From the IMG/VR virus record IMGVR_UViG_2654587686_000023: a stretch of DNA of 30,377 bases; one strand, given 5' to 3'. This DNA comes from a virus. Lineage: Duplodnaviria; Heunggongvirae; Uroviricota; Caudoviricetes. Under the pieces are notes generated by a model. That model worked only from the letters and a program-made list of their open reading frames with translations. It did not search any database and was not told the origin of the DNA. Of this stretch, positions 11,885 to 30,377 are shown piece by piece (within the stretch, counting starts at the first letter, position 1; every line of letters starts with the position of its first letter). The translations under genes were made by a program, and so were the position numbers.

Positions 11885-12555
11885 TTACCCATATAGCTCA
11901 TAAACATCTCAATCGTGCCGTATACGAAAAAGGCGGTGATGGTGGTGCCTCTAAAGCTCAGGCGAAGGCCCAGCAGCAGGCAATTGATTTGCAGCGCGAG
12001 CAGTGGAATACGGTGATGAATAATCTCAAGCCGTATGCAGAAGTCGGATTGCCTGCTTTACAACAACTACAAGGACTGATGACTCTGGAAGGGCAGAATA
12101 AAGCCGCGAATGATTTCTTTGGTTCTGGTTTATATAAAACACAGGCAGATCAGGCCCGTTATCAGAACCTTGTCTCAGCAGAAGCTACCGGGGGGCTTGG
12201 CTCAACAGCTACCAGTAACCAGTTATCTTCCATTGCGCCCATGCTTTATAACAATTGGCTTAGTGGGCAAATGCAAAATTATGGAAACCTGCTAAATGTC
12301 GGGATGAATGCGGCATCAGGGCAGGCAACGGCAGGGCAAAACTACGCCAATAATACCGGACAACTCTTGCAGGGGCTTGGCGCTATTCGTGCAGGTCAGG
12401 CGCAGCAGCCATCCAGTCTTGCGCGTGGTATTGGTGGGGCAGCATCAGGCGCTTTAGCGGGTGCGCAACTTGGTTCCGTTGTTCCTGGAATAGGTACTGC
12501 GGCAGGCGCTATTGGTGGTGGGCTTATTGGTCTTGTTGGGGGGCTTGGATTCTAA
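11878..12555 (+). CDS. hypothetical protein (225 aa) with Gly/Ala-rich glycine-zipper-like C-terminus; phage ejection/internal-protein-like
   Basis: ORF with low-complexity C-terminal GxxxG-rich hydrophobic segment (GIGGAASGALAGAQLG...GGLIGLVGGLGF); start overlaps upstream stop. Confidence 0.6.
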   Translation: MLITHIAHKHLNRAVYEKGGDGGASKAQAKAQQQAIDLQREQWNTVMNNLKPYAEVGLPALQQLQGLMTLEGQNKAANDFFGSGLYKTQADQARYQNLVSAEATGGLGSTATSNQLSSIAPMLYNNWLSGQMQNYGNLLNVGMNAASGQATAGQNYANNTGQLLQGLGAIRAGQAQQPSSLARGIGGAASGALAGAQLGSVVPGIGTAAGAIGGGLIGLVGGLGF

Positions 12556-13874
12556 TGGCGACATGGCAACTTGGCGGGCTGCCTAGCATGGCACCGCAAA
12601 ATGATAATGCTCCTCGTTCTTCCGTTCCTCAGCCTGTGCAGTATCAGCAGCAGCCAAACGTAGGTTTAATGGCGCTACAGGGGCTAAGAGGCGTTGCTGA
12701 GATTAATCAGCAGGCGCAAATTTCCCAGCAGCTAAAAGAATATCAGGCACAGTTGGGTAGTGCGGTAGCTAATAATGATCGTGTTGGCGTGCAGAAGTTA
12801 ATGGCCCAGTATCCCCAGTTTATGGCTGATTCTCAAAAACAGATGGGATTCATTGATGCTGAGCAAAATCGGCAGACCGCTGACGCTGCCATGAATCTGC
12901 GTCTTGCGTCACAAACTGGAGATCCACTGACCATGCAGAAGGCCATTCAGCAGGCAAATCCAGTATTACAGCGATTTGGTCTTCCTGCTGAAGAGGTTTA
13001 TCAGTCTTGGCAGAATGACCCACAGGAATTCAACAGAATCACTGACCTCATCCACCTCCATGCTGATCCAAATAGTTACTTTAGTGTTCAAGAGAAGCAG
13101 CAAGGGCAGAGTATTGCACAGCAGAACGCAGATACATCTGCATATAATGCTCAGGTTAATGCGGAACAGGGTAATCGGCGTCTCGATATGGAGCAGTTCA
13201 AAGTCCTATCCGATAACCAGCTACGCACGAGAGAAATGGTTCTGAAAGCACGACTTGGACGTGCTCAAAATGACATCGAGAGAGACAAGCTCAATGCTGA
13301 ACTGAGCAAGGTACAGCAGGCGAAAGTGGAGAAGATGAACGATAAAATTAATACTGTTGCAGGTAACATCGACTCCTTGAACTCTGCGCTTGAAGTGGGT
13401 CATGAACTGGCGGGAATTGTAGGGAAACATCCTTCGGCCGTTACCCGTTCGCAGAACTATAACCCCCTGACGCTGGGGTTTGGATTCCTTCCTGATGTAG
13501 CAGAAGACACACGAAGCCTACGCGCCAAAGCTGATGAATACAACCTAAAGGTTATTCTGCCTAGCCTCAAAGGGACTTTTGGCTCTAACCCAACCGAAGG
13601 GGAAAGGGCTGCCCTTATGCAATCTCAAAATGGCATTAAGTCAGCAACCAGCAATGAGGCATTTTTGCGAGAGTTGAATAAAGCGCAGGACGTAATTATT
13701 CGAATGCAGAAACGACAGATTGCCGGGCTCGGTATTCCTGTAACCAAATCTAAGGACGAAGAAACTGATACTAAAATGCTGTTGCAGGATCCTTCTCTGG
13801 TTAAGGATTATGTGACCGCACATGGCTATCTGCCGGAAAGTTACTATCAGGCAAAACTTAAGGGATGGCAATGA
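12555..13874 (+). CDS. hypothetical Gln-rich, probably coiled-coil protein (439 aa); phage ejection/internal-protein-like
   Basis: ORF whose ATG overlaps the previous stop (TAATGG); Q-rich heptad-like sequence. Confidence 0.6.
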   Translation: MATWQLGGLPSMAPQNDNAPRSSVPQPVQYQQQPNVGLMALQGLRGVAEINQQAQISQQLKEYQAQLGSAVANNDRVGVQKLMAQYPQFMADSQKQMGFIDAEQNRQTADAAMNLRLASQTGDPLTMQKAIQQANPVLQRFGLPAEEVYQSWQNDPQEFNRITDLIHLHADPNSYFSVQEKQQGQSIAQQNADTSAYNAQVNAEQGNRRLDMEQFKVLSDNQLRTREMVLKARLGRAQNDIERDKLNAELSKVQQAKVEKMNDKINTVAGNIDSLNSALEVGHELAGIVGKHPSAVTRSQNYNPLTLGFGFLPDVAEDTRSLRAKADEYNLKVILPSLKGTFGSNPTEGERAALMQSQNGIKSATSNEAFLRELNKAQDVIIRMQKRQIAGLGIPVTKSKDEETDTKMLLQDPSLVKDYVTAHGYLPESYYQAKLKGWQ

Positions 13875-16591
13875 TGGCACAACTGACAGAAAAACAGAAA
13901 GCCTATTCCCGTCATCTCGATGAAAAATATGGTTTCCCATCAGGGACGATGGAAACATTAGTTGGCAATGAATCTAGTGGTAACGGAAGTGCCGAGTCAC
14001 CGAAAGGAGCTAGAGGATTTGCTCAACTGATGCCCTCAGTAATGAGTGATGCTGGTTATCGTGGAACAGATCCGCGCTCACTGCCATTTGAAAAGCAAAT
14101 GGATATCGCAGCAAACCATCTCAATAAAGGAATGAAGCGATTTGGTGATATAGGTATGGCATTGGCTGGGTATAATTCTGGCTATGCTCGTATTAATGCC
14201 GTAAGAAACGGTAAATCTACACTGCCAGATGAAACGGCTAATTACGTAAGTAAATTTGCAGATGCCGGAATAATCCCTGATGACAGTGAAATCTTGCAGT
14301 TTGCACAAACCAGTCAACATCGCAATCTTCAGCAGCCTGACTACTCAGAGCTTGATAAAGAAATCTCTCAGGTGGGAGATATTTCTGCATGGGAAGCAAA
14401 ACGTCAGCAATTTAAGAACATAGAAGCAGGACTACCAACAGCCAGTTCATGGGAGCAGAAAAGAGCTCATTTTCTCGCCGATGAAAATGCCGGGGAACCG
14501 CAGCAGCAAGTAGCCAAGTCTAACCTTAATCCTGAGATGGAATATCTTTCGCCAGGACTGAAAGCTGCGCCAGAGCAGATGGCCAGAGGGATTGCTAATA
14601 TACCGTTTGATGTAATGGACGCAGGCGTGGGGGTAGTCAATGCGGCGCAATCAGCCGGAGCATGGGCAGCTCAGAAGCTTGGTGTGGGTGATGGTACATA
14701 CACGCCCATATCACCTGTCTTTCGCCCAGTAGACCAACCTACAGATCCATACGCGCAGGCTGGTGAGCAGCTAGCACCTTACCTTATTACAGGATTAGGT
14801 GCAGGAAAGGCAGCTACCGCAGCTTCTTCAGTTGCCAACGCTCCACGTGCTGAACGTGCGGCCACAAAGGTGGCTAGTATGTTGGCAGAAAACCTGCCAG
14901 GTACATTGGTGAACGCCCAAAAGAACGGGCAGATCAGCCCAGAAGACCTAGCAAAAGAGACAGGTATTGGCCTAGCAGGATCGCTAGGAGCACGCGCTTT
15001 AATAAAGAGCGGACAGACAGCCAGTGACGTAATGCGAGATGTATTGCGGAGTAATACAAATCAATCAAGCTATGTGTTAGGGGCAGCAAATACTCTGGAA
15101 ACCGCCAATGATGTATCGAAAGCAGCGCGTTCTGCCGTAGGCCGAGAGCATATCGCATCGCAGGCATCAAACGTCAGAGATGATGTCGCTAAGGCGGCGA
15201 AAATCACTGGTATTAATATCAACACCCTGACGCCTGGAATGCGCTCAGGTAGTCGTGGAATTGCCCAAGCAGAAGGTGTTCTGGCATCAACTCCTGGGAA
15301 TGTTCAGGATGCTCACCTTACGGCCTTCAATGAAATATCCTCAAAGTTGAATAAGCAGTTGTCTGATTTCGGTGCTGAGTCTGGAAGCGCATCAGAAAAA
15401 AGCGCAGCAATTAAAGAGCGCATCATCGCGAGCCTCAGTGATATGAAAACAGCAGAGAATATGGCATGGGCAGAACTGCGAAGCACGATGCCACGCGAAA
15501 GGATGAAAATGAGTAATGGGATGGCTGTCGTCCAAGCAGAAAAAGCAGCCAATGTTCCACTCAGCCCGGAGATGAAACAGTTTCAGGCTGCCAATAACCA
15601 AGGTGGCGGCATAACCTTCGACGGGATGAAGGCATGGCGTGCTAAGTTTGCTGATGCTGAACAAGCAAACACCCGGGCAGGTAAGGCCAATGCCGCCCGG
15701 GTTGCCGGAGAAATGCGCAGAGCTATCACTGATGACATGCGCATCATGGCTGAAAAAGGAAACTTCCTCACAGAATGGCAGAAAGCTAACGATCTCTCTA
15801 AAAGTTACATTATCGCCAAACAAAATGCCGAATCTGTTTTTGGTCGAGATCTCGCATCAGACGCTATGGTAAGAAAAGGTGCCGATACGCTTAAGGCATC
15901 CGCAAACACTGGAACGGGAGCTTTTCACCGTCTTATCTCCGCGCTGCCGGAAGCAGAACGCCAACCAGCAATAGCATCTATTCTTCAGCATGCTGTGGCG
16001 CAGGGAGAGAAGGGAGGAATCGGTGAAGAGTCTGGTATCCAGTATTTTGCCAAGCTCATGACCCAGCAGAATGTAAACGCCATCAGTCGTCATGCGCCAG
16101 ATCTCGGTAGAATGATGAAAGAGTTCGGTGTACTCGCTAAAGCCAGCACCAGACCGCAGCGATACGTAGAGCGCACGGGAAGAACAACTGAGGCTCTCAA
16201 AACGCTCGATTCAGGCCTTCCAAAGATCGTCGGCGTGATTATGAACGGAGTTCAACAGTCAGGTGCGATCGCTGGAGGCTTTGGCGGTGGTGTAATTGGT
16301 TCGATTAGTGGTTTGGTTGCTGGTGGCGCGCTGAGAAATACTGTGGCTAAGATTGGGGCGACAAGAAGTGGTCGATATGCGATAGAGAAAGCCGTTCAGG
16401 AAGCTACAAAAGCAGTGCGCGCAGGGGCATCACCAGCAGCGATCGCCGCAGCAGAGAAACGATTTTCGGCCAATAAAATTGCCATGAAAGCAATTCGTGA
16501 TGCCGTTGGGGCTGAAGAATTCGTGAAACTGACAAGGGCCGGGATTGTAGCTACCCTCAGTGGCATGAAAGATGTTAGCGAATGGGAATAG
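13865..16591 (+). CDS. large protein (908 aa) with N-terminal lytic transglycosylase (SLT) motif; phage internal-virion/ejection-protein-like
   Basis: N-terminal ES...GARGFAQLMPS...AGYNSGY pattern matches the catalytic Glu-Ser and G-L-M-Q/AYN-G signatures of family-1 lytic transglycosylases; rest is Ala-rich low complexity; start overlaps upstream stop. Confidence 0.7.
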   Translation: MAMMAQLTEKQKAYSRHLDEKYGFPSGTMETLVGNESSGNGSAESPKGARGFAQLMPSVMSDAGYRGTDPRSLPFEKQMDIAANHLNKGMKRFGDIGMALAGYNSGYARINAVRNGKSTLPDETANYVSKFADAGIIPDDSEILQFAQTSQHRNLQQPDYSELDKEISQVGDISAWEAKRQQFKNIEAGLPTASSWEQKRAHFLADENAGEPQQQVAKSNLNPEMEYLSPGLKAAPEQMARGIANIPFDVMDAGVGVVNAAQSAGAWAAQKLGVGDGTYTPISPVFRPVDQPTDPYAQAGEQLAPYLITGLGAGKAATAASSVANAPRAERAATKVASMLAENLPGTLVNAQKNGQISPEDLAKETGIGLAGSLGARALIKSGQTASDVMRDVLRSNTNQSSYVLGAANTLETANDVSKAARSAVGREHIASQASNVRDDVAKAAKITGININTLTPGMRSGSRGIAQAEGVLASTPGNVQDAHLTAFNEISSKLNKQLSDFGAESGSASEKSAAIKERIIASLSDMKTAENMAWAELRSTMPRERMKMSNGMAVVQAEKAANVPLSPEMKQFQAANNQGGGITFDGMKAWRAKFADAEQANTRAGKANAARVAGEMRRAITDDMRIMAEKGNFLTEWQKANDLSKSYIIAKQNAESVFGRDLASDAMVRKGADTLKASANTGTGAFHRLISALPEAERQPAIASILQHAVAQGEKGGIGEESGIQYFAKLMTQQNVNAISRHAPDLGRMMKEFGVLAKASTRPQRYVERTGRTTEALKTLDSGLPKIVGVIMNGVQQSGAIAGGFGGGVIGSISGLVAGGALRNTVAKIGATRSGRYAIEKAVQEATKAVRAGASPAAIAAAEKRFSANKIAMKAIRDAVGAEEFVKLTRAGIVATLSGMKDVSEWE

Positions 16592-19835: not shown

Positions 19836-20186
19836 CCTAACCTGGTGACGGTGGTTCGCATATCCTGATGGATGATCAGTGATTAATCAATGCGCCAAGC
19901 AGATGTGTCTATGTGTTTGTTAATCATTGCATGACAGTAGATCGACATGGGAGATCACGTTATATAGTTGAATTGTTAGGATATCCATGCACCGATCAAC
20001 TGACTAGGCTGATGTGCTTTTTAGCAGGTGCCATATAGTAGTTAGGCGGTTCTGTGAAATGATTACTGTTCCAGCATAACTGCGGCATAAAGCGGTGCTA
20101 TATAAGCTATTTGCTGGCGGATTTAGTCTTCACCGTTCATATATGTAGTGACTATTTGACAGAGTGTTAGTTCACGGACACTTTTT

Positions 20187-20293
20187 GTTGGTTCAAAATG
20201 AGTTGATGTTGGTTCAATATTTTAGAAAAAACACAATAAAAACAACGCTCTTTACAAATTGAACCAACTGAACCAACTGAACCAACACCTTTT
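20187..20293. repeat. Iteron cluster B: two TGTTGGTTCA copies (20187-20216) plus three inverted AACTGAACC-type units (20258-20284); inverted partner of cluster A
   Basis: 20248-20293 is the reverse complement of 10671-10724 apart from one 9-bp unit (both arms include AAAGGTGTT and CAATTTGTAAAGAG). Confidence 0.7.
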
Positions 20294-20322
20294 TGCTTAT
20301 CTATATAATCTGAGAGGCAGAA

Positions 20323-20604
20323 ATGATAAGGGACAGGAAAGCTGAAGAGCTGGAGTCAAAAGGGCTATACCGGAGAGCTGCCGCACGATGGATGGAAGTC
20401 ATGCTGTTATGCAGCGAGGACGATGATCGGGAATGGATAAAGCGCCGCCGTGAAACGTGTCTGGAGAACGTGAAGCGCCCGCCCGTGAAGGTTGAGGAAT
20501 TTGGCGACCTGCATAAAGCTGTTACCGAAACGCAACACCGCATGGGGATAGCGCAACCGAACGGTAACGCCTTCCGGTTAAATGGCGGCAAGAGGCAAAG
20601 GTAG
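20323..20604 (+). CDS. PerC-family transcriptional activator-like protein (93 aa)
   Basis: N-terminal KAEELESKGLYRRAAARWMEVM and REWIKRRRETC pattern resembles PerC/Pch-family proteins common in P4-like islands (recalled similarity). Confidence 0.65.
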   Translation: MIRDRKAEELESKGLYRRAAARWMEVMLLCSEDDDREWIKRRRETCLENVKRPPVKVEEFGDLHKAVTETQHRMGIAQPNGNAFRLNGGKRQR

Positions 20605-20639
20605 ACCACCAGAGGGAAATCATCCTCTGGCTGGCGGTT

Positions 20640-20668
20640 TCTGGTATTTCGGAACAAGTACGCGCGCG
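20640..20668. repeat. Repeat copy C: TCTGGTATTTCGGAACAAGTACGCGCGCG (14-bp palindrome TACGCGCGCGCGTA)
   Basis: Third copy of the ACAAGTACGCGCGCG 15-mer. Confidence 0.7.
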
Positions 20669-20901
20669 CGTAGCACCCAATCGGTGAGGAAATAGCGGCG
20701 ACCTGAATGGTCAAAATCACAACGCAGCTATCCCCGTAAGCAGCGCTTAACGGAATAGCAGTAACCTGAATCCAGTGGGGAGGGGGTAGTCAAATCTCTA
20801 CAGCCCTGACTATCCGGGACTGCCCGCCCCATCGTTTTTTTATACCCGCGAAAAATGAAATTTAATCCGGGCGTGTTTCATCCTTCCAGAGGGTATGACG
20901 T

Positions 20902-21087
20902 ATGACACCACGCGAAATAGCCTTATTGACCATCGCCAAACTTGAGCACGGAGGCCACCAGCTTACACAGGCAGATCAACGGGAGATAGAACGATCAGTT
21001 AATGCCGATATAGCCCGGCGCGACAGGTTCCGCGAAATGATGCGAGCACCTGCCTACCAGTGGAAGAAGCCAGCGCCGCGCAGGTAG
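20902..21087 (+). CDS. small hypothetical protein (61 aa)
   Basis: ORF with AGAGGG SD-like sequence upstream. Confidence 0.45.
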   Translation: MTPREIALLTIAKLEHGGHQLTQADQREIERSVNADIARRDRFREMMRAPAYQWKKPAPRR

Positions 21088-21207
21088 ATATGGGATTATT
21101 CCACATGTAACTTATGCGTATTAAGCAAATTTCCTTTATTCACCTTTACAGAATTGTGAGTACGTCAGTATCGTTATCCTTCCGATTCGCATTTATTCAG
21201 GATTTGC

Positions 21208-21750
21208 ATGTACCAGCTAAAGATAACCATCCGAGACAGCAAACCACCTATATGGCGGCGTGTGCTGGTTCCAGAGCAAATCCCCTTTAGTAAACTTCAT
21301 GCCGTGATCCAGTTAGCTTTTGGCTGGAATGACGAACACCTGTATATGTTCGAGAAAGGGCGTAAAGGTGATCCAGGTAGCGAGTATCGCGTATGGGGTG
21401 AGGATGAAAGCATGGGTAACGCGGCAATCACGCCACTATGGGCGGCGCTCCAGAATGAGGGTGACAAGCTGGTTTACACGTATGACTTTGGCGACTGGTG
21501 GGATTGCGTCATTGTGCTGGAGAAGCAAACACACGATACGAGTAATCAGCCCATTAGCTGCCTGCGTGGGAAAGGCACCACCCCGGCGGAAAACTCAGGC
21601 GGCTTGCATGGTTACAATGAATTGCTATTACAGGCCAGAGAGTCTGATAATCCTGAGCAGGCCGAGATCCACAATTTCCTGATGCTGGATATTGAACGCC
21701 GGGTTTACGACCTGAGCCGCATCAACGACAGATTGCAGGCTATTAACTGA
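21208..21750 (+). CDS. pRiA4b ORF-3-like family protein (180 aa)
   Basis: N-terminal YQLKITIRDSKPPIWRRVLVP...LHAVIQLAFGW...HLYMF pattern matches the plasmid pRiA4b ORF-3-like domain (recalled). Confidence 0.65.
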   Translation: MYQLKITIRDSKPPIWRRVLVPEQIPFSKLHAVIQLAFGWNDEHLYMFEKGRKGDPGSEYRVWGEDESMGNAAITPLWAALQNEGDKLVYTYDFGDWWDCVIVLEKQTHDTSNQPISCLRGKGTTPAENSGGLHGYNELLLQARESDNPEQAEIHNFLMLDIERRVYDLSRINDRLQAIN

Positions 21751-22102
21751 CCCGCATGTATTCACCTGATATTGCGTTGTCAGCGCCGCCAGTATCGCGC
21801 ATAACAGCGCACTGACCGGGTAAACCGTAGCGCACGACCGTTGCGTTAGTATCACCGCCGCGCCGTATCTGGCGCGATTCATACACTGTCACCCGCTCAA
21901 GCAGTCCACCAGCAACCATGCTTTCCAGTGTGCGCCGGGTTGATTCGAGCTGGTGACGCTTATCGAACGACACCATGCCATGAAGCAGGTAGGCCACACC
22001 CGACACATCGAACGGCGGCGCACCAATCTCACCAGTCACCCATTCGAGGTTATCCGGTTCAAAGTAGCTAAGTATCTCTTTTTTGCGACTGGTCATTCTC
22101 AT
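21743..22102 (-). CDS. hypothetical protein (119 aa)
   Basis: ORF on minus strand, overlaps 3' end of the preceding gene by 8 nt. Confidence 0.45.
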   Translation of the reverse strand: MRMTSRKKEILSYFEPDNLEWVTGEIGAPPFDVSGVAYLLHGMVSFDKRHQLESTRRTLESMVAGGLLERVTVYESRQIRRGGDTNATVVRYGLPGQCAVMRDTGGADNAISGEYMRVS

Positions 22103-22219
22103 GGCTGGCTGATTCCTTATTGTGGGATAGCACTATCATACAATAAGTGGGTTAAAGGGAGAGCGTTACCGCCTGATATGCTGTATGAATAACAACCAAA
22201 TTTCAGGGGCGGAAAAAGA

Positions 22220-22242
22220 TATGGGGGTACTTTTGGGGGTAT
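22220..22242. repeat. ATGGGGGTACTTTTGGGGGTATC, right-end copy of the GGGGGTA arm-type motif
   Basis: Near-identical to 1557-1580. Confidence 0.55.
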
Positions 22243-22303
22243 CTATAAAAAATGAACAATAAAAAAGGCAACAAAAACAAAGCTTATCGCCTATGTGTAT
22301 TGT

Positions 22304-22322
22304 TCCTATTATCGGCACCATT
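22304..22322. repeat. attR core: second copy of TCCTATTATCGGCACCATT
   Basis: Exact 19-bp repeat of the thrW 3' end (1428-1446). Confidence 0.85.
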
Positions 22323-22925
22323 AAGAAAATCAATAACTTAGCTTAACTTCTCTAAGAAATTGTATCTTCTGTTATCACTTACAAACGCCTATACGTTGTT
22401 ATGGGCTTTGGTAGTGTAACACGTATGGGCGAGTAGTTCCCAGGCTCAACCTCGTAACAAGTTCCTTTGAAGCTGGAAGACGTGCCACCGTCTCTAAACC
22501 TTCTACCAAAACTCTTAGCAAGATGTTCCACACCTGGCGCGGTGTCCAATGATGCCACACGTCGTGAGACGTTGCAGAGGATAAACAGGCTAAATGATGG
22601 GAAGAGTTTTAAGTGCAATAGTGGATTAAAGCCCACCTCTTCAAAACCTAACTTGATCGGGAAAGAATCAAGCTCTAGCACGGTTTCGTCCACCGGAGTA
22701 CAACGGGTGCCTGATAAGAGAAGAACTGCTAAGACTTCATAGCTTTTGTGAAAAAGCCCTTTTTAGTGGATACGCCTACGGCGCTTATTTTTTGGTATAA
22801 CCATCAAAGGCGCTTTATGGCTCCTATTGTCTTGAAAATGTATCTTTACTTGTATTGTGTTTTATGCGTAGTCTCCCTGTGTAGTATGTAACTTGTTAAT
22901 TTTCATATGAATACAGAGGCACACG

Positions 22926-23084
22926 ATGAAAAACATTGCAGCTATAAAACGTAATAACCGCAAGATTCACGCTCGTAAGTTCCTGTCTACGCCAGAAGGA
23001 AAAGCCTGGTTAGAGCGTAAACAGAGAGAGAACGAAGAAAGAAAACTCCTTAGTGAGTTGAAATGGCTTAGAGAGGATTTCTGA
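22926..23084 (+). CDS. small basic hypothetical protein (52 aa)
   Basis: Short ORF below track cutoff with GAGG 7 nt upstream of ATG; Lys/Arg-rich. Confidence 0.3.
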   Translation: MKNIAAIKRNNRKIHARKFLSTPEGKAWLERKQRENEERKLLSELKWLREDF

Positions 23085-23380
23085 AAATCTCCAGAACGCA
23101 ACAGGACGCATTCTAACGCTGTTTTCATTGCTTGGTATAGGGATGTATAGGTGATGTGTGTTTAATGCGTCTGTGAGCTTGTTTTGTGCCTTATTTTGCA
23201 TTTTCATAATGCAGAAGAGAACACGGAAAGCCTTAAAATTAATTATTGGGGTATTTAAGGCTATTTTTAGGGTATTTAAGGGTATTAAACTTGATTTAAT
23301 TGATTAAAATATAAACAGATAGTTCTGTATCTTATTGATTTATAAGGTTATTTTTAAATAAAGATAAATAAAAAATAAAT

Positions 23381-23430
23381 AGCCATAAATAGCCATAAAT
23401 AGCTATAAATACATCTAAATACATATGAAT
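23381..23430. repeat. Five tandem 10-bp units (AGCCATAAAT x2, AGCTATAAAT, ACATCTAAAT, ACATATGAAT)
   Basis: Helical-period (10 bp) direct repeats visible in sequence; further GGTATTTAAGG-like repeats at about 23245-23300. Confidence 0.6.
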
Positions 23431-23525
23431 CCCCTCCCTTATGGCTAGATTGCGAGAGGTGCTTAACGCGATTTTCAGCGCCCCCCGATCTGGAAAATCC
23501 AGAATCCCCAAATATCAAGGAGGCA

Positions 23526-24065
23526 TTACGCCTCCTCTTCTTCCTTCTTAATTCGCTGTACCGTTGAAGGAGCAACATTAAAGCTCTCGGCGGTTTTACG
23601 CACTGACAGGCCATCAGAAAGGGCTTTCTTTATACCTTCTCTATCTACTGCTTTTCCATTACCACGCTTTGTAGGATTGACGGCTTGCGCTTCTCGTTTA
23701 CGCTCTAACATCAGTTCACGTTCACACGTTGCAACTGCCGACAACATCGTAAGCATCATTTTTCCCATCGCGCTTGTAATGTCTGCAATGATCCCTTCTT
23801 TATGAAATCGAACAATTACACCTCGATTATTAAGTTGTTCCACTAAGGCAAGAATGTCTAAGGTGTTACGCCCTAAACGGTCGAGAGAGTGCACGTGTAA
23901 GGTGTCGCCTTCTCTCAGATAGGATAAACACGCCTGCAATCCTGGACGGTTAGTGTCTTTACCTGACAGCTTATCTTCAAAGACTTTATCAAGCGTTACT
24001 CCTGCAAGCTGGCGATCAGTGTTCTGATCTACAGTGCTCACACGCTTATAACCGATATTGCTCAT
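23526..24065 (-). CDS. small serine recombinase (resolvase/invertase family, 179 aa)
   Basis: N-terminal IGYKRVSTVDQNTDRQ with the catalytic-serine context typical of resolvase/invertase-type serine recombinases; short C-terminal DNA-binding region; size matches small resolvases. Confidence 0.85.
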   Translation of the reverse strand: MSNIGYKRVSTVDQNTDRQLAGVTLDKVFEDKLSGKDTNRPGLQACLSYLREGDTLHVHSLDRLGRNTLDILALVEQLNNRGVIVRFHKEGIIADITSAMGKMMLTMLSAVATCERELMLERKREAQAVNPTKRGNGKAVDREGIKKALSDGLSVRKTAESFNVAPSTVQRIKKEEEEA

Positions 24066-24079
24066 AAAATCCCCTTAAT

Positions 24080-24190
24080 GTATCGATTTGGCACTACTCC
24101 AATGCAAATGAGTATATCGTATTCATTTGGTCTGTTTCAAGCCTTATAGGTACGGAATATTACACGATTTAGATGTATTCATTTGGTATG
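24080..24190. promoter_or_regulatory. Repeat cluster upstream of recombinase gene: GTATTCATTTGGT at 24119-24131 and 24176-24188 plus related GTATCGATTTGGC at 24080-24092; candidate res/operator
   Basis: Three related 13-bp motifs directly 5' of the recombinase start codon; resolvases usually act at multi-subsite res sites next to their gene. Confidence 0.4.
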
Positions 24191-24674
24191 CCTAATGGAT
24201 ACACAGGGGAATAGATTAAATAGTGTTCTGTTTATACAGGTTTATTTGTTAGATCAACAATTTGGCATTTCTAAACAGATGTTTGAACGTTGCCAAATGT
24301 CTTGACAACACAAGAAAAGGGCTTGCTATGCCACGCATTACACGAAATAAGGCTGTAAAAACAAAATAAATTTTAAAATTTGCACAAACGAGAAAACTCA
24401 TTCAGAAACAAGCAGAACAATTTTTAGCCAACAATTTCTGATGGTGCTCTGTAAGCCGCACTACACAAGGCTTTGCGAAAGTGATGTAAAAGTGAAGAAA
24501 GTAAGAATTGCACTTTTAAGCTACTTTTCATTGAATTTTTAGTATGGAATTACACAGGAATAAGTTAGGGATATTCTATGATTTACACAGGGAATATAGG
24601 GGATTATGGCACACACATAGAAAGGCATTACACAGAGTGCTATGTGATGATTGGTAGTAACGGTAGTTCACTAT

Positions 24675-24784
24675 GAGCTAGGGGGTAGTTCACTATGAGC
24701 TAGGGGGTAGGTCATAGTGAGCTAGGGGGTAGGTCACTGTGAGCTAGGGGGTAGGTCATAGTGAGCTAGGGGGTAGGTCACTGT
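24675..24784. repeat. Five tandem 22-bp iterons GAGCTAGGGGGTAG(G/T)TCA(C/T)(T/A)GT with a partial leading copy from about 24655; candidate plasmid/phage replication origin
   Basis: Contiguous 22-bp direct repeats without spacers, immediately followed by an extremely AT-rich stretch (24795-24880, including (TA)n). Confidence 0.75.
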
Positions 24785-24794
24785 GAACTACAAT

Positions 24795-24880
24795 AAGACT
24801 ATTAATAAAACTATATTAGATTATTAATTAGATCATAATAATAATATTCTTTATATCTATATATATATATGATCTTTTGC
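24795..24880. other. AT-rich putative DNA unwinding element adjacent to the iterons
   Basis: Nearly pure A/T run with TATATATATATA; iteron + AT-rich arrangement is standard for theta-type origins. Confidence 0.5.
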
Positions 24881-25868
24881 CTTCCGGCGTTAGCTTCACT
24901 CTCTGGCAAGCAGCCTTACTCCGCTACCTTTGGGCTTCGTGGCTGGCCCGTTCCGCTCACACCGAAAGCAAAGCGTTACTTTCTTCGTGTAACTTCGTTG
25001 GCGATAACGCCCACGAAGAAATCTATTGCGCTGTGCGCAGAAGAGTAATCACCTAACCAATCATACTGATTGCTTATGTGTTAACTCTAACTCTTAATTC
25101 CACTTCTACATTCTGTAGTTGTGTAATTACTCGAAGAGAGAGCGGCTAAAGCTCAATTACACTCTGCTTTCCTCGTGTAATTTCACTAAGCCTCAATACA
25201 ATTCCACTTTCTACATTTAATAACTCTCGTTATTCTCTGTAGTTGTGTAATTGTTTTCGGTGGAAAAGCCAGAGGCGACACCGAAAGAGAATTCTGATCT
25301 TATTAATCTTATCTATCTTAGTTATCTTACTTATCTACTTTATTATTAATAATAGCTTTATAAGCTCTGTGTAGCTCTTTGACGCAAGAAACAGCATTCA
25401 GGAAGGGAATCACCTTAGAAAAGTGTTCTTTGCGTCATAATGTGTTTTATGAAGGATTCAGAGGTGTTTCATAACAGGAATGTATAGAGGATACTTTAAT
25501 TAATTAAAAATAAGGGGTCTAAATGCTTCTCTAATAGCATTAAGCAGGGTAGGGAATGGAAACGCATTGCCTACATATAATAAACTCACTACAGGGCTTT
25601 ACAGGGCGTTTTATAAAGTGACTCTCTATCTTATATCTACCATTACCTTTTCATATACCTAACAAATACAAAATAAGCCCCTTAAATAAGCCTCTGGCGA
25701 GCTAAACAGCCATTACATAAGGGAATGTATTGCTTTTATCAAAACCTCGTTAGAACGCGTTTTAGAGCGTTTTAGCGGATAATGAAGAATAGCACCACAC
25801 AGGAGAGCACGAATTGCTAAGAAAAAATGTAAGTGCATGAAAAAGATCGGATTTTTTGTGAAAAGGTA

Positions 25869-25896
25869 TTGACAAATGTTTCTTTATATGTAATAA
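25869..25896 (+). promoter_or_regulatory. sigma70-like promoter (TTGACA - 16 bp - TAATAA)
   Basis: Consensus -35 and near-consensus -10 about 110 nt upstream of the 26008 gene. Confidence 0.5.
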
Positions 25897-26007
25897 TAGG
25901 TATTAGAGGGACAGAAAACATTCTTCTCTAAATAATCAAAATCAATGCACTTTGAAGCCGTCAGGCTTGCAAGGTGTTTTTTCTTTTAACTGAATAAGGA
26001 GTTTTTT

Positions 26008-26196
26008 ATGAAATGGTTTACACCGAAACACGTCGTAGAGGCATTTAAAAAAGGTGAGCTTACACGCCATCAAGTAGTAATGAATCGTAATATGGCAAGG
26101 AGTCGAGGTTATCCAGAGCGAGCAGCTTGCTTCAATGAAGCACTCAAGATTATTGATGAACTAAGAAAAAATGAAAAAGAATCTGAAACAGAGTAA
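26008..26196 (+). CDS. small hypothetical protein (62 aa)
   Basis: ORF with AAGGAG SD. Confidence 0.55.
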   Translation: MKWFTPKHVVEAFKKGELTRHQVVMNRNMARSRGYPERAACFNEALKIIDELRKNEKESETE

Positions 26197-26215
26197 AGAA
26201 TAGAAGGAGAAAACT

Positions 26216-26383
26216 ATGAGCGAAACTAAGAAACCAATTCCGCGCACTTACCTACACGTTGACCCTGAAATCTTCAAGGTTTTATTTGCTGAAGCCAAGA
26301 AAAGGCAAATTATGGTCAGTGATTTGATGTTAGAAATCATTACTGAAGCAGCAGAGAACATCAAACAAAAAAAGGGTAAGTGA
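26216..26383 (+). CDS. ribbon-helix-helix-like DNA-binding protein (55 aa; CopG/ParG-like)
   Basis: Short ORF below track cutoff, AAGGAGA SD; TYLHVDPEIFKVLFAEAKKRQIMVSDLMLEII fits beta-alpha-alpha RHH pattern. Confidence 0.5.
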   Translation: MSETKKPIPRTYLHVDPEIFKVLFAEAKKRQIMVSDLMLEIITEAAENIKQKKGK

Positions 26384-26434
26384 TCCTCATTCACTTTAGT
26401 AGCGCATTAAGCGTGATTTATAAGGAGATTTTTA

Positions 26435-27124
26435 ATGATTAATCAACTAACTTTTACAAAACACTATGACACGTTTGATAATGTATCAAAGATTTATTCT
26501 GATAAATTCCCTCAAGGAAAAGATTTAGATCTATTACATATTGTGCTTTATTTTCGATTCCTTAGTTATCAGGAAAACAACCTTAATTGTTATGAAAGTC
26601 ACGAAACATTAGCTAAGATTTTTAAGTCTTCAGCGTCAACAATTAAACGTAAGATAAACGATCTTAAAGAGATGGGATTATTAGAAACATCCCCACATCC
26701 TGATCCGTATATTTCATCTTTGATTTACAATGCTCTCCCTCTCACAGATGCACATATTACTCCCCCAGGAGAATCATCACTCTCTGATCTTTCTGAGGCA
26801 GAAGAAGCACAGGAACAACCTAAAGGCCATAAACAGCCTTCTTTTGATGTTCTTGATGATTGGGATGCGCCTTTGCCGTGGGAGACGGAAGAAACACCTG
26901 TTTCATCAAGTGAAAAGGTAGCTAATGATAATGAGGAGGATGTGTTAGAGAATTTTGCATCTCTTATTATCAAGCAGAAGAATACCAGAACAGGAGGAGC
27001 ATCATTTATAGAATTTGCAACATCGTTAGCCTATAAGCACAGGTTAAAGCTACCAAATGGTATTGAGGCATATTTTTCTAAGAATTACCCAAATGTGTAT
27101 GATGACTTTGATATTCCATTTTAA
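26435..27124 (+). CDS. winged-helix DNA-binding protein with acidic central region (229 aa); candidate replication initiator/primosomal-type protein
   Basis: AAGGAG SD; N-terminal HTH (ETLAKIFKSSASTIKRKINDLKEMGLLE); lies about 1.6 kb from the iterons. Function inferred. Confidence 0.55.
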   Translation: MINQLTFTKHYDTFDNVSKIYSDKFPQGKDLDLLHIVLYFRFLSYQENNLNCYESHETLAKIFKSSASTIKRKINDLKEMGLLETSPHPDPYISSLIYNALPLTDAHITPPGESSLSDLSEAEEAQEQPKGHKQPSFDVLDDWDAPLPWETEETPVSSSEKVANDNEEDVLENFASLIIKQKNTRTGGASFIEFATSLAYKHRLKLPNGIEAYFSKNYPNVYDDFDIPF

Positions 27125-27135
27125 TAAGGAGGGTT

Positions 27136-27414
27136 ATGATTCAATATTTAGTAAAAAATCAAGTAGACAGAATTCAGTGTAATGACACAGGAAAACGCAT
27201 CTACGAAACACTTGCTTACCTCTATAAAGGAAAGCCAACACCGCTAAAATATAGCGATGTGTTACATCGAGCAGGGTGCTCTGAAGATGGTTTAAAATTC
27301 TGGCTTAAACAGCTATCAAACTTCGGTGTTATAGAAATTAAAGAATTATCTTTCTCTACATTCAATCTCAAAAGACTAGATAAAGAAATAGAATTCATCT
27401 ATTCCACTCTCTAA
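27136..27414 (+). CDS. small winged-helix-like DNA-binding protein (92 aa)
   Basis: AAGGAGG SD; putative HTH YSDVLHRAGCSEDGLKFWLKQLSNFGVIE. Confidence 0.55.
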   Translation: MIQYLVKNQVDRIQCNDTGKRIYETLAYLYKGKPTPLKYSDVLHRAGCSEDGLKFWLKQLSNFGVIEIKELSFSTFNLKRLDKEIEFIYSTL

Positions 27415-27543
27415 AATCTCTCTATGTAATTAAAATATAAAAGGAAAACATTATTATGATAGTAGCTATGTATTGGTTATTGTTCTTTCTCACGTTAGAA
27501 ACATATTTCGGGGTGTTTTCCTTTAAAAGAAAAGGAAAAATAA

Positions 27544-27954
27544 ATGGCAAAAAGAAAAAACAATGTTGTTAAGAAGATCGGTGATTCAGCTTCTCTTCTA
27601 AGTAAACCTAAATCTATTCTAAGACGTAAAGACTTTAAAGAGCTAGTTACGCTCACCAAGCATAATAGCGCCCCTGGCGAATGGAAAACAGAGATCATAG
27701 AACATTCTCCCTCTGTGCCTTGTGGAGATGAATATATCGCATTACAAGAAATCTTATCTTCAACACCTGGCGTATTCTGGAAACCTAGAAAAAGAAAAGA
27801 GTATATTGTTGATAGCTCTGATTTACGCAAATACCAGATTTTAGGATTTGAAGATTATAATCACTACGTTGGTTATCTCGCCACCAATGGCCTAAATAAT
27901 TTAGTTCCTGAATTCCAGATTCTGGATAATGTTGATCACTATGGAGACTTTTAA
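27544..27954 (+). CDS. hypothetical protein (136 aa), basic N-terminus
   Basis: ORF with AAGGA SD. Confidence 0.55.
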   Translation: MAKRKNNVVKKIGDSASLLSKPKSILRRKDFKELVTLTKHNSAPGEWKTEIIEHSPSVPCGDEYIALQEILSSTPGVFWKPRKRKEYIVDSSDLRKYQILGFEDYNHYVGYLATNGLNNLVPEFQILDNVDHYGDF

Positions 27955-27955
27955 T

Positions 27956-28294
27956 ATGAACAAAAACACGTATGACACAATTTACTCACTAATTAATTAT
28001 TATGAGGATGATTACCTCCTGCCTTTAAACCGTGCTGAACTTGAAGCATACAAAGAAAACACGCCAGCGGCACTAAATGAGGCGTTTAAACACTGGGATT
28101 TAGCTGTGAATGCCTTTGAGATGCTCTGTAAGCGTGTAGAGATGCTCTGTAAGAGTGAGAACGCATATCTGACAGCGGATCAGATATGGGAGCTATCAAA
28201 CTGGATAGAAGGTATTTACTCGGACGTTCGCTATGTAGGAGACGGACTTGTTGAACTAGCTCAACGCTTAGGCGCTGCTATCACAGAAGAATAA
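27956..28294 (+). CDS. hypothetical protein (112 aa from ATG 27956; track ORF starts 27929)
   Basis: ATG at 27956 has GGAG 9 nt upstream and begins 1 nt after the previous stop; contains an in-frame 21-bp tandem duplication (EMLCKRV/EMLCKSE). Confidence 0.5.
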   Translation: MNKNTYDTIYSLINYYEDDYLLPLNRAELEAYKENTPAALNEAFKHWDLAVNAFEMLCKRVEMLCKSENAYLTADQIWELSNWIEGIYSDVRYVGDGLVELAQRLGAAITEE

Positions 28295-28323
28295 AAAAAG
28301 CAACAAAAAAGTTGTAAAATATC

Positions 28324-28352
28324 TTGACATTTCATCTATTGTATGTTAATAT
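28324..28352 (+). promoter_or_regulatory. Strong sigma70 promoter (TTGACA - 17 bp - TAATAT)
   Basis: Consensus -35 and 5/6 -10 with optimal spacing in the intergenic region upstream of the head-gene block. Confidence 0.6.
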
Positions 28353-28484
28353 AATTATATAGGGTGATTATTTTTCCTTTGTTGGTTCGATATTAAAAAT
28401 TCTTCCTGTCATTAAAGGGGAGTAAAATCTCCGCTCCCCGCTTCTCCTCCTCCTTAAGTGTCATTATTACCTCTTTTTTCCTTT

Positions 28485-28514
28485 GTTATGCATACATCTT
28501 GGAGTATGCATAAC
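28485..28514. promoter_or_regulatory. Perfect 10-bp inverted repeat GTTATGCATA-N10-TATGCATAAC; candidate operator or RNA hairpin
   Basis: Seen in sequence within the leader between promoter and terminator. Confidence 0.45.
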
Positions 28515-28543
28515 ATAGGGTAATTACATAGGTATGAGTTAAT

Positions 28544-28576
28544 AAAAGGCGGCTTTAAATGCTGCCTTTTATTTTG
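28544..28576 (+). terminator. Intrinsic terminator-like hairpin (AAAAGGCGGC-TTTAAAT-GCTGCCTTTT + ATTTTG)
   Basis: About 10-bp stem with one mismatch, flanked by A-run and T-run, about 215 nt downstream of the strong promoter and about 60 nt upstream of the next gene. Confidence 0.5.
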
Positions 28577-28637
28577 CCCGTTATGCAACTTAAAAGTTGT
28601 ATTTCTTACTTTAAACAAGGTAACAAGGTTTATATAA

Positions 28638-28850
28638 ATGTTGTTCTTAAATGATAAAGAGCAAATCATCAAGTATAAAGATGAAATGCTGAAAATTAAT
28701 CCACAAATTACCGAAATGGTAGCTAAATACGCTGGGTGTTCTGTAGAGGAAGTAGAAAGATGTGTTGAAAAATATTTTTCTCCTTCTTCTCCGTCTACAC
28801 CTTCCCTTAATGAATTAATCAAATTAAAAGCTAAGGAGATTACTAAATGA
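28638..28850 (+). CDS. small hypothetical protein (70 aa)
   Basis: ORF; weak SD; stop overlaps next start (ATGA). Confidence 0.45.
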   Translation: MLFLNDKEQIIKYKDEMLKINPQITEMVAKYAGCSVEEVERCVEKYFSPSSPSTPSLNELIKLKAKEITK

Positions 28851-29209
28851 TTATTGATTTAGACGCTCTTTTTCCAAGTCGAAAGACGTTTACAGATCTG
28901 GTGGCTTATTGTACTGATCCGTTTGCCTCTGTAGAAAGCAAGGTTTTTGCTTCTCTTCCTGCTGATGTTGAATGCGGAGACTTGATCACCAGCACTGGCG
29001 CTAAATATGAATCAGGAGATGATATCTATGTTGTTATGAGTGAATTTGTAACGGCTGGAGACAACAAGCCTGTAGATGTGCTACGTAGCAATGCTGGGCT
29101 TGTATGCATCAAAGCTGATGCCCTGAATGCTGTAAGTGAAGCAGCAAAAACAGCATTAATTAAAAAAGGCTTCCAGCTTGAAGGCTTTAATACGGTTTTC
29201 ACTTCTTAA
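28847..29209 (+). CDS. possible head decoration protein (lambda gpD-like position and size, 120 aa)
   Basis: AAGGAG SD; about 110-120 aa protein immediately upstream of a gpE-like capsid gene, as in lambda D-E; assignment by synteny and size only. Confidence 0.5.
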   Translation: MIIDLDALFPSRKTFTDLVAYCTDPFASVESKVFASLPADVECGDLITSTGAKYESGDDIYVVMSEFVTAGDNKPVDVLRSNAGLVCIKADALNAVSEAAKTALIKKGFQLEGFNTVFTS

Positions 29210-29227
29210 TAAAAGGAATAATAATAA

Positions 29228-30256
29228 ATGATTCTAGGTAATGATTACGTTGATTTAGCCCCTTTGTTCTCTGCGCATAGCACTAGAAACTATCTGCTCT
29301 CTACCCTCGACTTCACTGATCCGGTGGGCGTTAGTTCTCATAAAGTAGCTGTTTCCCAGCTTGTCGAAAGCAACGAATCTCTGTTCAACAAAGAAACCTC
29401 TCGTTTCTCTTCTGAACACAATGTTACTAAGCGAGAACAAGGTAAAGAATGGCTGATTGAAATCCCGTATTTTCTTCGTGAAGATGTGATCCGTCCTTCT
29501 GATGTTCAAGGCAAACGTAAGCCAGGCACTGATTTTCAGGAAACACTCACTGATATCTATGCTGACTATGTTGCTAAACACCACGTAGCGTATCAGCGTA
29601 CAAAAGAGAGCGTGTTGGCTGCATCTCTGTTTAGCGGTAAAACTTACACGCCTAAAACTGATGATGTTCTTATCGAATGGGGCAAGCTGTTTAACGTATC
29701 AGCTATGAAAGCCACTGTGAACGCTTCCAGCACTGACACCACGAAGATTTTTAAAGAATTTGATCAGATTGCTACTGACATTATCGAAAAAGCACAAAGC
29801 CAGGCGGCTGCTGTAGAGCGTATTGTTGTTTTCTGTAAGCCGGAAGCCTTCTCTGCAATTCGATTCTCTGCTGGTATGGCAAACGCATTCCAGTATGTAA
29901 GCCCACTGGAAGAGGGAAACGTTGTGTATCAGCGTCGTGACCTGCTACCGGGGGTGACAGCGTTCACTATTCCAGGAACTAACATTGATGTTATTAAACT
30001 GGTAGATCCGCTACACCTTGCACATATGACCGCTGACGCTGTAGCCGTGCCTAAATTCGCTAAAGGCTCTAACGTCTACCAGGCCATCTATGGGGCGGCT
30101 TCCAGCACTTTTGAACTGATTAATACCGCTCCTGCTGAGGTGTACAGCTACAGCTATGAATCTTCTCGTGGTGATGCTGTTAACGTTGTTACAGAGAATA
30201 GCCAGATGGTTGTAAACCACGGTGTAGGCTTCTCCGTTCAAATCACTGTTAAATAA
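29228..30256 (+). CDS. probable major capsid protein, lambda gpE-like (342 aa)
   Basis: AAGGA SD; length almost identical to lambda gpE (341 aa); recalled local similarity (RIVVFCKPEAFSAIRFS vs gpE NIIVFDPKGWALFRSF; C-terminal GFSVQITVK vs gpE EFVSVQLA). Confidence 0.55.
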   Translation: MILGNDYVDLAPLFSAHSTRNYLLSTLDFTDPVGVSSHKVAVSQLVESNESLFNKETSRFSSEHNVTKREQGKEWLIEIPYFLREDVIRPSDVQGKRKPGTDFQETLTDIYADYVAKHHVAYQRTKESVLAASLFSGKTYTPKTDDVLIEWGKLFNVSAMKATVNASSTDTTKIFKEFDQIATDIIEKAQSQAAAVERIVVFCKPEAFSAIRFSAGMANAFQYVSPLEEGNVVYQRRDLLPGVTAFTIPGTNIDVIKLVDPLHLAHMTADAVAVPKFAKGSNVYQAIYGAASSTFELINTAPAEVYSYSYESSRGDAVNVVTENSQMVVNHGVGFSVQITVK

Positions 30257-30377
30257 TATTTTAACGTGTAATAGAGGCGTGGCGCTGATGAATCCCCTAA
30301 TGATTTTGGTAAAAATCATTAAGTTAAGGTGGATACACATCTTGTCATATGATCAAATGGTTTCGCGAAAAATCAAT

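Follow-up and report, generated by a model that had tools for sequence, protein, structure and literature searches.

Integrative elements of Escherichia coli and related bacteria as putative satellites of phi92/phAPEC8-type virulent myoviruses

The stretch of DNA analysed here, hereafter the window, is the 30,377-nucleotide IMG/VR virus record IMGVR_UViG_2654587686_000023, assigned to the Caudoviricetes. Positions 22323-30284 of the window are the left 8 kb, or two-thirds, of an integrated element of about 12.3 kb, and not a piece of a plasmid or of a lambdoid prophage. From the letters and their open reading frames alone, an initial annotation had delimited a region at 22323-30377 and proposed a phage-plasmid or a capsid-encoding satellite. 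The left limit of that region was placed exactly at the attL junction, where the element proper begins, since the neighbouring island carries a duplicated tRNA 3' end at 22305-22322; the tRNA-Thr gene itself (thrW), at window 1369-1444, ends with the identical 18 bp. The right limit was the edge of the window: homology to intact copies ends at 30284, where an IS10 is inserted 28 bp past the capsid stop codon. The contrast in composition with the neighbouring island, which had also been remarked on, is real (38.2% against 47.5% G+C).

At least 80% of the region is present in 179 of 5,426 complete E. coli genomes (about 3%). All of these near-full-length copies are 12-kb islands, and those examined are chromosomal, bordered by att repeats and equipped with a tyrosine integrase. 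Intact copies measure 12.3 kb and occupy one of two sites, srsR or the 3' end of thrW. In E. coli NCTC10973 the insertion splits srsR, a gene of the LysR family, and has 52-bp direct repeats on both sides; strain EcE.CRE.COL has the element immediately at the thrW 3' end, and a divergent version in strain FDAARGOS_1259 (locus L002) has the 18-bp core repeated at its right end.

Beyond the capsid gene, the intact NCTC10973 copy continues with a 67-aa gene, a 609-aa tape measure, a 237-aa tube initiator and a 425-aa tyrosine integrase, the last forming the right end of the element on the strand opposite to the tail genes. The IS10 separates the capsid gene of the window copy from all four. The virion genes of an intact element number four at most, one each for capsid, tape measure and tube initiator and a possible one for decoration. 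Scans of all open reading frames of the 12.3 kb against Pfam and PHROGs gave no match to portal, protease, scaffold, terminase, sheath, tube or lysis families, and none of the unassigned frames is long enough for a portal or a large terminase subunit (TerL). The portal, protease and scaffold block whose absence had been noticed upstream of the capsid gene is indeed missing, both from the window and from complete copies elsewhere, and the search for terminase and portal genes further downstream that the initial annotation had suggested yielded none in the intact 12.3-kb copies.

The 342-aa protein, which had been likened to the lambda capsid protein gpE, is a major capsid protein of the HK97 fold. 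Its match to PF03864 reaches 55.8 bits for a cut-off of 22.9, and of all PDB chains, Phi92_gp124 is the one best matched by the profile of its family, over the full length (2.3e-18); the two proteins are 22% identical end to end. The AlphaFold model (predicted template modelling score, pTM, 0.59) has significant Foldseek matches to HK97-fold phage capsid proteins exclusively, with those of phiTE, ICP1, Bas63, Sf14 and lambda at the top. Lambda-like, as a description of the head genes, is accurate only as far as the Pfam family (Phage_cap_E) goes; the relatives are phi92/phAPEC8-type myoviruses and not lambdoid phages.

The 120-aa protein encoded directly ahead of the capsid gene had been called decoration-like, which is plausible but not established. 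In favour are its position and size, shared with the phi92 decoration protein gp123 (130 aa; phrog_2680, 6.7e-39), and a weak transitive link to phrog_2680. An exhaustive profile search gave 21 representative relatives only, and it is the most distant of these that match phrog_2680 'head decoration', at 1.7e-5. Against it, the protein has no direct match to gp123 or to any Pfam family, PHROG family or PDB chain, and its AlphaFold model is unusable (predicted local distance difference test, pLDDT, 43). A first hhalign run against the gp123 family returned a probability of 1.4%; with distant relatives added to the 120-aa family, the alignment covered 101 columns with an E value of 3e-4 and a probability of 40%. 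The last four residues of the 120-aa protein and of gp123 are the same, VFTS (window 29198-29209; phi92, L003 10190-10201), and the closing S, or TS, hardly varies within either family; the two have no direct similarity otherwise. VFTS is perhaps a capsid-binding tail common to both, or else a chance agreement.

The tail genes are closest to those of a single group of phages. The tube initiator, a Dit-like protein (PF21821, 2.6e-29), shares 57-60% identity with phi92 gp135 and related proteins; among PDB chains, Phi92_gp135 (21vq_N, E 2.6e-77) is its best match, ahead of the phiTE and Pam3 tube initiators. The tape measure hits phrog_16051 (5.6e-53), and its identity to Stephanstirmvirinae tape-measure proteins, the phi92 gp134 family, amounts to 34-37%. 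The order of the genes mirrors phi92, where decoration gp123 and capsid gp124 are adjacent and are followed further on by gp133, tape measure gp134 and gp135. Tube initiator, tape measure, capsid profile, gene order and shared DNA make up five independent lines that link the element to the Stephanstirmvirinae, virulent myoviruses of about 147 kb. In the FDAARGOS_1259 variant, the tube initiator is nearest to that of Phapecoctavirus (61-65%). The helper phages are most likely phi92/phAPEC8-type virulent myoviruses of this subfamily.

The element also shares with these phages a 40-bp block that is identical to nt 318-357 of phi92. The phi92 record has 343-bp direct terminal repeats, the left one occupying nt 1-343 and the right one ending in ...GCGTTA; the block therefore straddles the inner boundary of the left repeat, which falls between window positions 23463 and 23464. 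A weaker second block, at about 23505-23520, matches phi92 nt ~285-304. The 40-bp block is kept in 62 Stephanstirmvirinae phage records and, in those starting at a physical end, sits some 320-360 nt after the start and has two occurrences per record. The FDAARGOS_1259 variant has the Phapecoctavirus version, 83 bp at 81% identity, just 3' of its recombinase gene; Phapecoctavirus records likewise have the corresponding stretch two times each, at nt 273-357 or close to the end of the record. Two lineages of the element hence carry, at one and the same place, the repeat-boundary sequence of two helper genera. When the exact 37-mer core of the block was used as a search pattern in IMG/VR, it was found in at least 12 contigs bearing the element and in 2 phage contigs. 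We infer that the block may be a copy of the recognition or cleavage site of the helper terminase.

Two other explanations of the block were tried and rejected. A tRNA fragment, considered for a helper-like 46-bp block that sits amid tiny open reading frames in phage Antha, was ruled out with ARAGORN, which finds no tRNA there. A structured RNA found no more support: folding of the block gives z = -0.7 on both strands, and it has no Rfam match. Over 20000-30377, Rfam matches nothing besides the IS10 RNA-OUT.

The element has the layout of an iteron replicon, as the initial annotation had proposed. The 22-bp iterons and the A+T-rich stretch beside them were confirmed (5.9 copies, and 80 bp at 11% G+C), and so was the protein noted as a winged helix-turn-helix, a 229-aa Rep-like initiator that matches phrog_270 through its winged-helix segment and is encoded 1.6 kb downstream of the iterons. 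Its match to Pfam HTH_36 (2.8e-5) is slightly below the family cut-off. The heptamer ATTACAC occurs at 8 sites within 24159-25251 (1.1 kb) and 16 times in the whole window, for 3.5 expected. The replicon reading was strengthened by the co-variation of iterons and Rep, scored over 26 distinct contigs: at least two iteron copies are present in all 11 contigs with a Rep N-terminal domain at least 91% identical to the window's, and in none of the 15 with a different one. Other variants have different tandem repeats in place of the iterons, and the N- and C-terminal parts of Rep were exchanged independently (loci L022, L027, L030). In L027 the two domains are 35% and 90% identical to those of the window, in L030 100% and 55%. 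From these comparisons, the N-terminal winged-helix domain would set the iteron specificity. Co-variation, variant repeats and domain exchange together support a cognate Rep-iteron origin.

The small serine recombinase and the repeats next to it, both recognised at first reading, were verified through PF00239, phrog_125 and tandem repeats at 23242-23287 and 23375-23411. The likely role of the enzyme is multimer resolution of the excised replicon, and the tandem repeats are candidate binding sites for the recombinase or a host factor. A cassette comprising the recombinase gene and its flanks (23518-24192) is swapped as a unit among copies that are otherwise about 95% identical (loci L021-L036). 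Copies in Klebsiella, Serratia and a metagenome have a small tyrosine recombinase in place of the serine recombinase cassette; evidently, either type can supply the needed function. An invertible segment, bounded by the inverted repeats 23405-23420 and 24167-24182 around the recombinase gene, had also been considered and was dropped: none of about 25 related loci is inverted, and the cassette is swapped instead.

The gene order of the element is conserved in E. coli variants, in Klebsiella, in Serratia and on a metagenome scaffold. The common left part consists of a small recombinase, a long non-coding stretch with tandem repeats, small genes, a Rep-like gene and further small genes; the common right part, of genes for proteins of about 70 and 120 aa, the capsid protein, a protein of about 65 aa, a tape measure of about 620 aa and the integrase. 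The divergent FDAARGOS_1259 version has the same gene order at the same tandem position on thrW. Compared with the window-type element, its integrase is 96% identical, its recombinase 63%, its tube initiator 49%, its tape measure 25% and its capsid protein 19%. The capsid protein of this strain (L002 15176-16207) has no phage match by tblastn and finds only phrog_29, at 1.1e-4; in this family, capsid genes change much more rapidly than those for the integrase or the tube initiator. Capsid relatives on bacterial or metagenome-derived contigs of Citrobacter, Enterobacter, Cronobacter, Kluyvera, Buttiauxella, Scandinavium and Sodalis indicate that the family extends further; the hosts found all belong to the Enterobacterales. 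Between the window and NCTC10973, the ratio of nonsynonymous to synonymous substitution rates (dN/dS) is 0-0.33 for the ten genes showing substitutions, with 0.04 for the serine recombinase, 0.10 for the capsid gene and 0, over 3 synonymous changes, for the 70-aa gene. By these comparisons, the element is discrete, mobile and under selection, and not a remnant.

The most likely explanation, and one that we hold to be probable, is that the element represents a new satellite family, integrative and dependent on phi92/phAPEC8-type virulent myoviruses. It has the general attributes of a satellite, namely an integrase with att sites, a replication module of its own (whose activity is predicted) and an incomplete set of virion genes. 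Of the two possibilities first put forward, the capsid-encoding satellite is the one supported, and it has become more specific with the element's own capsid and tail-core genes and its links to a helper. The case that had been named as speaking against such an element, membership in a complete lambdoid prophage, does not apply to a complete element of 12.3 kb without portal or terminase. The element, suspected to be poorly described, is apparently undescribed: a full-text literature search found no description of the element or of satellites of Stephanstirmvirinae, rV5-like phages or virulent coliphages.

The life cycle of such a satellite can be outlined. The element resides in the chromosome at the thrW 3' end or in srsR, between att repeats and with the tyrosine integrase at its far end. 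Infection by the helper would trigger excision. The Rep protein, whose winged-helix domain co-varies with the iterons, would fire the origin, and the small serine recombinase would keep the resulting circles monomeric. The late genes, placed behind a constitutive-looking promoter and a terminator, would be controlled by antitermination. The head would be built from the element's own HK97-fold capsid protein, possibly with its decoration protein, and a small capsid fitting 12 kb would be expected; portal, protease and terminase must come from the helper, as the element has none. The tape measure and the tube initiator, homologues of gp134 and gp135, would replace those of the helper in chimeric tails, by analogy with the PLEs (elements that resemble phage-inducible chromosomal islands) of Vibrio cholerae. 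Packaging would recruit the helper terminase through the 40 bp identical to the edge of its terminal repeat.

Several observations weigh against this satellite reading. Excision, replication, packaging and mobilisation by the helper are all putative. No circular contig was found, and the 12,325-bp metagenome scaffold has no terminal overlap. Patterns of the attP junction have no match in the JGI metagenomes, and the IMG/VR matches examined are larger contigs, mostly with identifiers of the isolate-genome type, and not virion DNA. The 37-mer core of the repeat-boundary block is present in 11 of 14 close copies, missing from L020, L021 and L027, and absent from all examined copies with the more distant capsid type; nothing in the phage collection matches the corresponding site of the EcE.CRE.COL variant. 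Of the two repeat boundaries, just one is copied, the outer end of the phi92 repeat having no match in the element. The capsid protein is only 22% identical to that of the presumed helper, and tblastn places it nearer to Pseudomonas phages. The Klebsiella, Serratia and metagenome copies are without a tube initiator. Finally, the window copy itself, broken by IS10, may be non-functional.

A single IMG/VR match to the attP junction patterns was obtained, on a 58-kb contig whose identifier is of the isolate-genome type and which is probably a tandem array. There (L058 6655-6694, IMGVR_UViG_2778261152_000005), the right end of one element is joined through the thrW core to the left end of another, most simply a tandem pair at thrW.

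The missing traces of packaging, in circular contigs as in attP junctions, would also fit an anti-phage defence island that does not spread in particles. In such an island, the capsid, tape-measure and tube-initiator homologues would be decoys derailing phi92-like assembly, and the repeat copy would titrate or misdirect the terminase. The structural homologues are specific to one virulent phage group, and satellites or defence islands aimed at tail assembly are known (PMC12987554, PMC11364771). For pure defence, however, the full mobility kit of integrase, att sites, iteron replicon and resolvase-type recombinase would be superfluous; moreover, no protein of the element matches a known defence family in PADLOC, and the 12.3-kb size and gene order are kept across genera. 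We consider this alternative unlikely. Interference with the helper and transfer as a satellite are compatible, not mutually exclusive.

A decayed prophage that retained a few head and tail genes would account for the presence of phage-type capsid, tape-measure and tube-initiator genes beside an integrase, and the IS10 damage in the window copy would suit it. It is nevertheless quite improbable. The layout of about 12 kb recurs with intact att repeats in several genera and at two insertion sites, and the low dN/dS of the ten genes mentioned above argues for selection. Furthermore, the relatives of the tail genes are strictly virulent 147-kb phages, never prophages, and members of the capsid family came from bacterial or metagenome-derived contigs only, none from a complete phage genome. 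A plasmid integrated by chance, be it a phage-plasmid or a small iteron plasmid, the other possibility of the initial annotation, is suggested by the iterons, the A+T-rich stretch, the Rep-like protein and the resolvase-type recombinase, but is hardly credible, as coverage of the region stays below 80% in all 72,556 plasmids (22% at most), the 179 near-full-length copies are all 12-kb islands, chromosomal with att repeats and integrase where examined, no partition or transfer genes are present and four virion genes in 12 kb fall far short of a complete phage gene set.

Chances are about even that the element exemplifies a new design and, in E. coli and other Enterobacteriaceae, the first family of satellites that parasitise virulent phages. 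In this design, the satellite would contribute its own capsid, with the decoration protein, and a tail core made of the tape measure with or without the tube initiator. The 147-kb helper would give the portal, protease, terminase, sheath, tube and baseplate, packaging would proceed through a copy of the terminal-repeat cleavage site, and the satellite lineages would track the helper genera Justusliebigvirus and Phapecoctavirus.

The PLE of Vibrio cholerae is, by analogy, the closest functional precedent. PLEs and the element are integrated islands of 12-18 kb, have an iteron-type origin with an initiator of their own, and exploit a large virulent myovirus, presumed in the case of the element. 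The integrase of PLE is a large serine recombinase, whereas the element has a tyrosine integrase and hosts among the Enterobacteriaceae, not Vibrio. Both carry a tape measure and a baseplate-proximal tail protein, which in PLE replace those of the helper in chimeric tails and in the element may do likewise. A 2026 study showed that PLEs encode a tape measure, a tail assembly chaperone and a baseplate hub and form chimeric tails on the virulent myovirus ICP1 (PMC12987554); putative tape-measure genes are also reported for other satellites, including some phage-inducible chromosomal islands that form capsids (cfPICIs; PMC12987554, Extended Data Fig. 10). Identity to the helper proteins is 20% for the PLE tape measure, 20% for the chaperone and 41% for the hub, to be compared with 34-37% for the tape measure and 57-60% for the tube initiator of the element. 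PLE uses an external scaffold to turn the coat protein of the helper into small capsids (PDB 8g1r title; PMC12846349), whereas the element has its own capsid gene. It is very unlikely to be a PLE because all hosts found are Enterobacterales.

With cfPICIs, the element shares integration, about the same size, Enterobacteriaceae as hosts and an HK97-fold major capsid protein of its own. A cfPICI has 11 core components, among them terS and terL for the terminase subunits, an HNH nuclease and a head-tail adaptor and connector, and the SatelliteFinder model for cfPICIs lists tail genes as 'forbidden' (PMC10085698). The element departs from this model twice, lacking the required terminase, adaptor and connector genes and possessing forbidden tail genes: scans of its open reading frames against Pfam and PHROGs reveal no terS, terL, HNH nuclease, adaptor, connector, portal or protease, and it has two tail genes. 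Its replication gene encodes a putative iteron-binding winged-helix protein, unlike the primase-replicase of cfPICIs. Current satellite detectors would miss it, since tail genes are exclusion criteria in their models.

Ccm of SaPIbov5 is a satellite-encoded homologue of a capsid protein that comes without portal or terminase and would need the other head proteins of the helper. The element shares this lone capsid homologue; SaPIbov5, however, belongs to Staphylococcus, has cos siphoviruses as helpers and carries no tail genes. P4, an E. coli satellite of about 12 kb, has a cos site that mimics the one of its helper P2 and hence uses the helper terminase. The element resembles it in size, host and the possession of a putative helper packaging-site copy, here the 40-bp identity to the phi92 repeat boundary, and differs in a virulent helper, direct terminal repeats instead of cos ends, and capsid and tail genes of its own. 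The P4-like core set consists of the alpha primase, sid, psu, delta, epsilon and alpA; no protein of the element matches the P4 core families (primase, Sid/Psu, AlpA) in Pfam, PHROGs or NCBIfam scans. Phage-inducible chromosomal islands (PICIs) combine int, an alpA or stl regulator, a primase-replicase, a capsid-morphogenesis gene and terS, without structural genes. The element has only the integrase in common with them: the family scans detect no PICI terS or primase, and capsid and tail genes are present instead.

The phi92- and phAPEC8-type phages are virulent coliphages of broad host range, often picked for phage therapy and biocontrol. If the satellite reading is true, about 3% of complete E. 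coli genomes would harbour an unrecognised source of resistance or of lowered phage yield, which would at the same time be an unrecognised route of gene transfer; capsid relatives exist in Klebsiella, Citrobacter, Enterobacter and Serratia. It would also mean that the strategies of an own capsid and of chimeric tails are combined within one 12-kb element. E. coli would then offer a model for the assembly of a foreign capsid on a helper portal and for the recognition by a terminase of a direct-terminal-repeat boundary. For the packaging site of phi92/phAPEC8-type phages, so far undefined, the 40-bp block offers a candidate that can be tested directly.

Table 1. Features of the element and its borders in the window (positions are those of the whole 30,377-nucleotide stretch).
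Feature	Position	Strand	Evidence and remarks
attL core CCTATTATCGGCACCATT	22305..22322	+	Copy of the tRNA-Thr (thrW) 3' end, at the far end of the neighbouring island
52-aa conserved open reading frame	22926..23084	+	Annotated in RefSeq copies; 96% identity to L002, which diverges elsewhere
Tandem repeats 3' of the recombinase gene	23242..23411		21 bp x2.2 at 23242-23287; 10-bp ATAAATAGCC x3.7 at 23375-23411
Block identical to phi92 nt 318-357	23450..23489	-	40/40 bp, E 8e-16
Small serine recombinase, resolvase/invertase type, 179 aa	23526..24065	-	PF00239 1.1e-33; HTH_7; phrog_125 'DNA invertase' 1.3e-54
Non-coding control and origin region, 1.9 kb	24066..26007		No coding sequence annotated in RefSeq copies
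Iterons, 22-bp unit GGTAGGTCACTATGAGCTAGGG x5.9	24662..24790	+	Tandem Repeats Finder score 191-214
A+T-rich stretch, 11% G+C (89% A+T)	24791..24870		Adjoins the iterons; candidate DNA-unwinding element
Sigma-70-like promoter, strong, TTGACA-17 nt-TG-AATAAT	25869..25897	+	Ahead of the rightward operon (early genes); 11/12 consensus matches, extended -10; consensus match only
62-aa conserved protein, possible regulator	26008..26196	+	62-67% identical in divergent E. coli and Klebsiella variants
55-aa protein	26216..26383	+	Gene 99.6% DNA-identical to a gene of Justusliebigvirus phages muut (muut_153) and inny
Rep-like initiator, 229 aa	26435..27124	+	phrog_270 2.6e-9 and other 'replication initiation' PHROGs; winged-helix segment
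92-aa protein, winged-helix fold possible	27136..27414	+	Weak matches only (ArsR, E 0.49); dN/dS 0.15
136-aa conserved protein	27544..27954	+	51% identical in Klebsiella variant; dN/dS 0.10
111-aa conserved protein	27959..28294	+	RefSeq start; alternative start 27929 gives 121 aa; 28% identical in Klebsiella; dN/dS 0.17
Late-gene leader	28324..28575	+	Strong sigma-70-like promoter 28324-28352, leader of ~200 nt, intrinsic terminator 28544-28575
70-aa protein, first gene of the head module	28638..28850	+	66-74-aa gene at the same position in Klebsiella, Serratia and metagenome variants
120-aa protein, candidate head-decoration protein	28847..29209	+	Directly 5' of the capsid gene; position and size as phi92 gp123
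Major capsid protein, 342 aa, HK97 fold, gpE/Phage_cap_E family	29228..30256	+	PF03864 4.9e-15
IS10 outside end, not part of the element	30285..30377	-	RNA-OUT RF00240, 56.9 bits; terminal sequence CTGATGAATCCCC...

The rightward operon (Table 1) encodes, in this order, proteins of 62, 55, 229, 92, 136, 111 or 121, 70, 120 and 342 aa. No family match was obtained for the 62-aa protein in Pfam, PHROGs or NCBIfam, nor for the 55-, 92- and 136-aa proteins in these three collections, PADLOC or PDB sequences. The 136-aa protein is a candidate assembly or hijacking factor. The 55-aa protein had been labelled a ribbon-helix-helix (RHH) protein, for which neither profiles nor PDB give support. Its gene precedes that of a winged-helix protein both in the element and in phages muut and inny (L004 2513-2680; L005 2513-2695), and the winged-helix protein of inny and muut shares 27-32% identity with the Rep N-terminal domain. 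The near-identity of the shared 55-aa gene implies that a regulatory or replication module has recently passed between the element and a phage.

The intrinsic terminator of the late-gene leader stands directly ahead of the first head gene. The same layout of promoter, leader and terminator recurs, with unrelated sequences, in three other loci (L002 16806-17803, L010 8844-9412, L013 8601-9615). It suggests antitermination control, and the leader could alternatively be a small RNA.

The neighbouring thrW island (1445-22304) has a content of its own. Its genes at 1610-2824, 7892-10651 and 11423-16591 include a tyrosine integrase, a TOPRIM/DUF927 primase and a P22-type DNA-ejection block with DUF2824, P22_gp7 (6.6e-73), a gp20-like Inj_translocase and a 908-aa SLT-domain protein; genes for capsid, tail or terminase are absent. 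The island appears to be another satellite-like element, equipped only with the DNA-delivery proteins of a podovirus, in parallel to the carriage of a tape measure next door.

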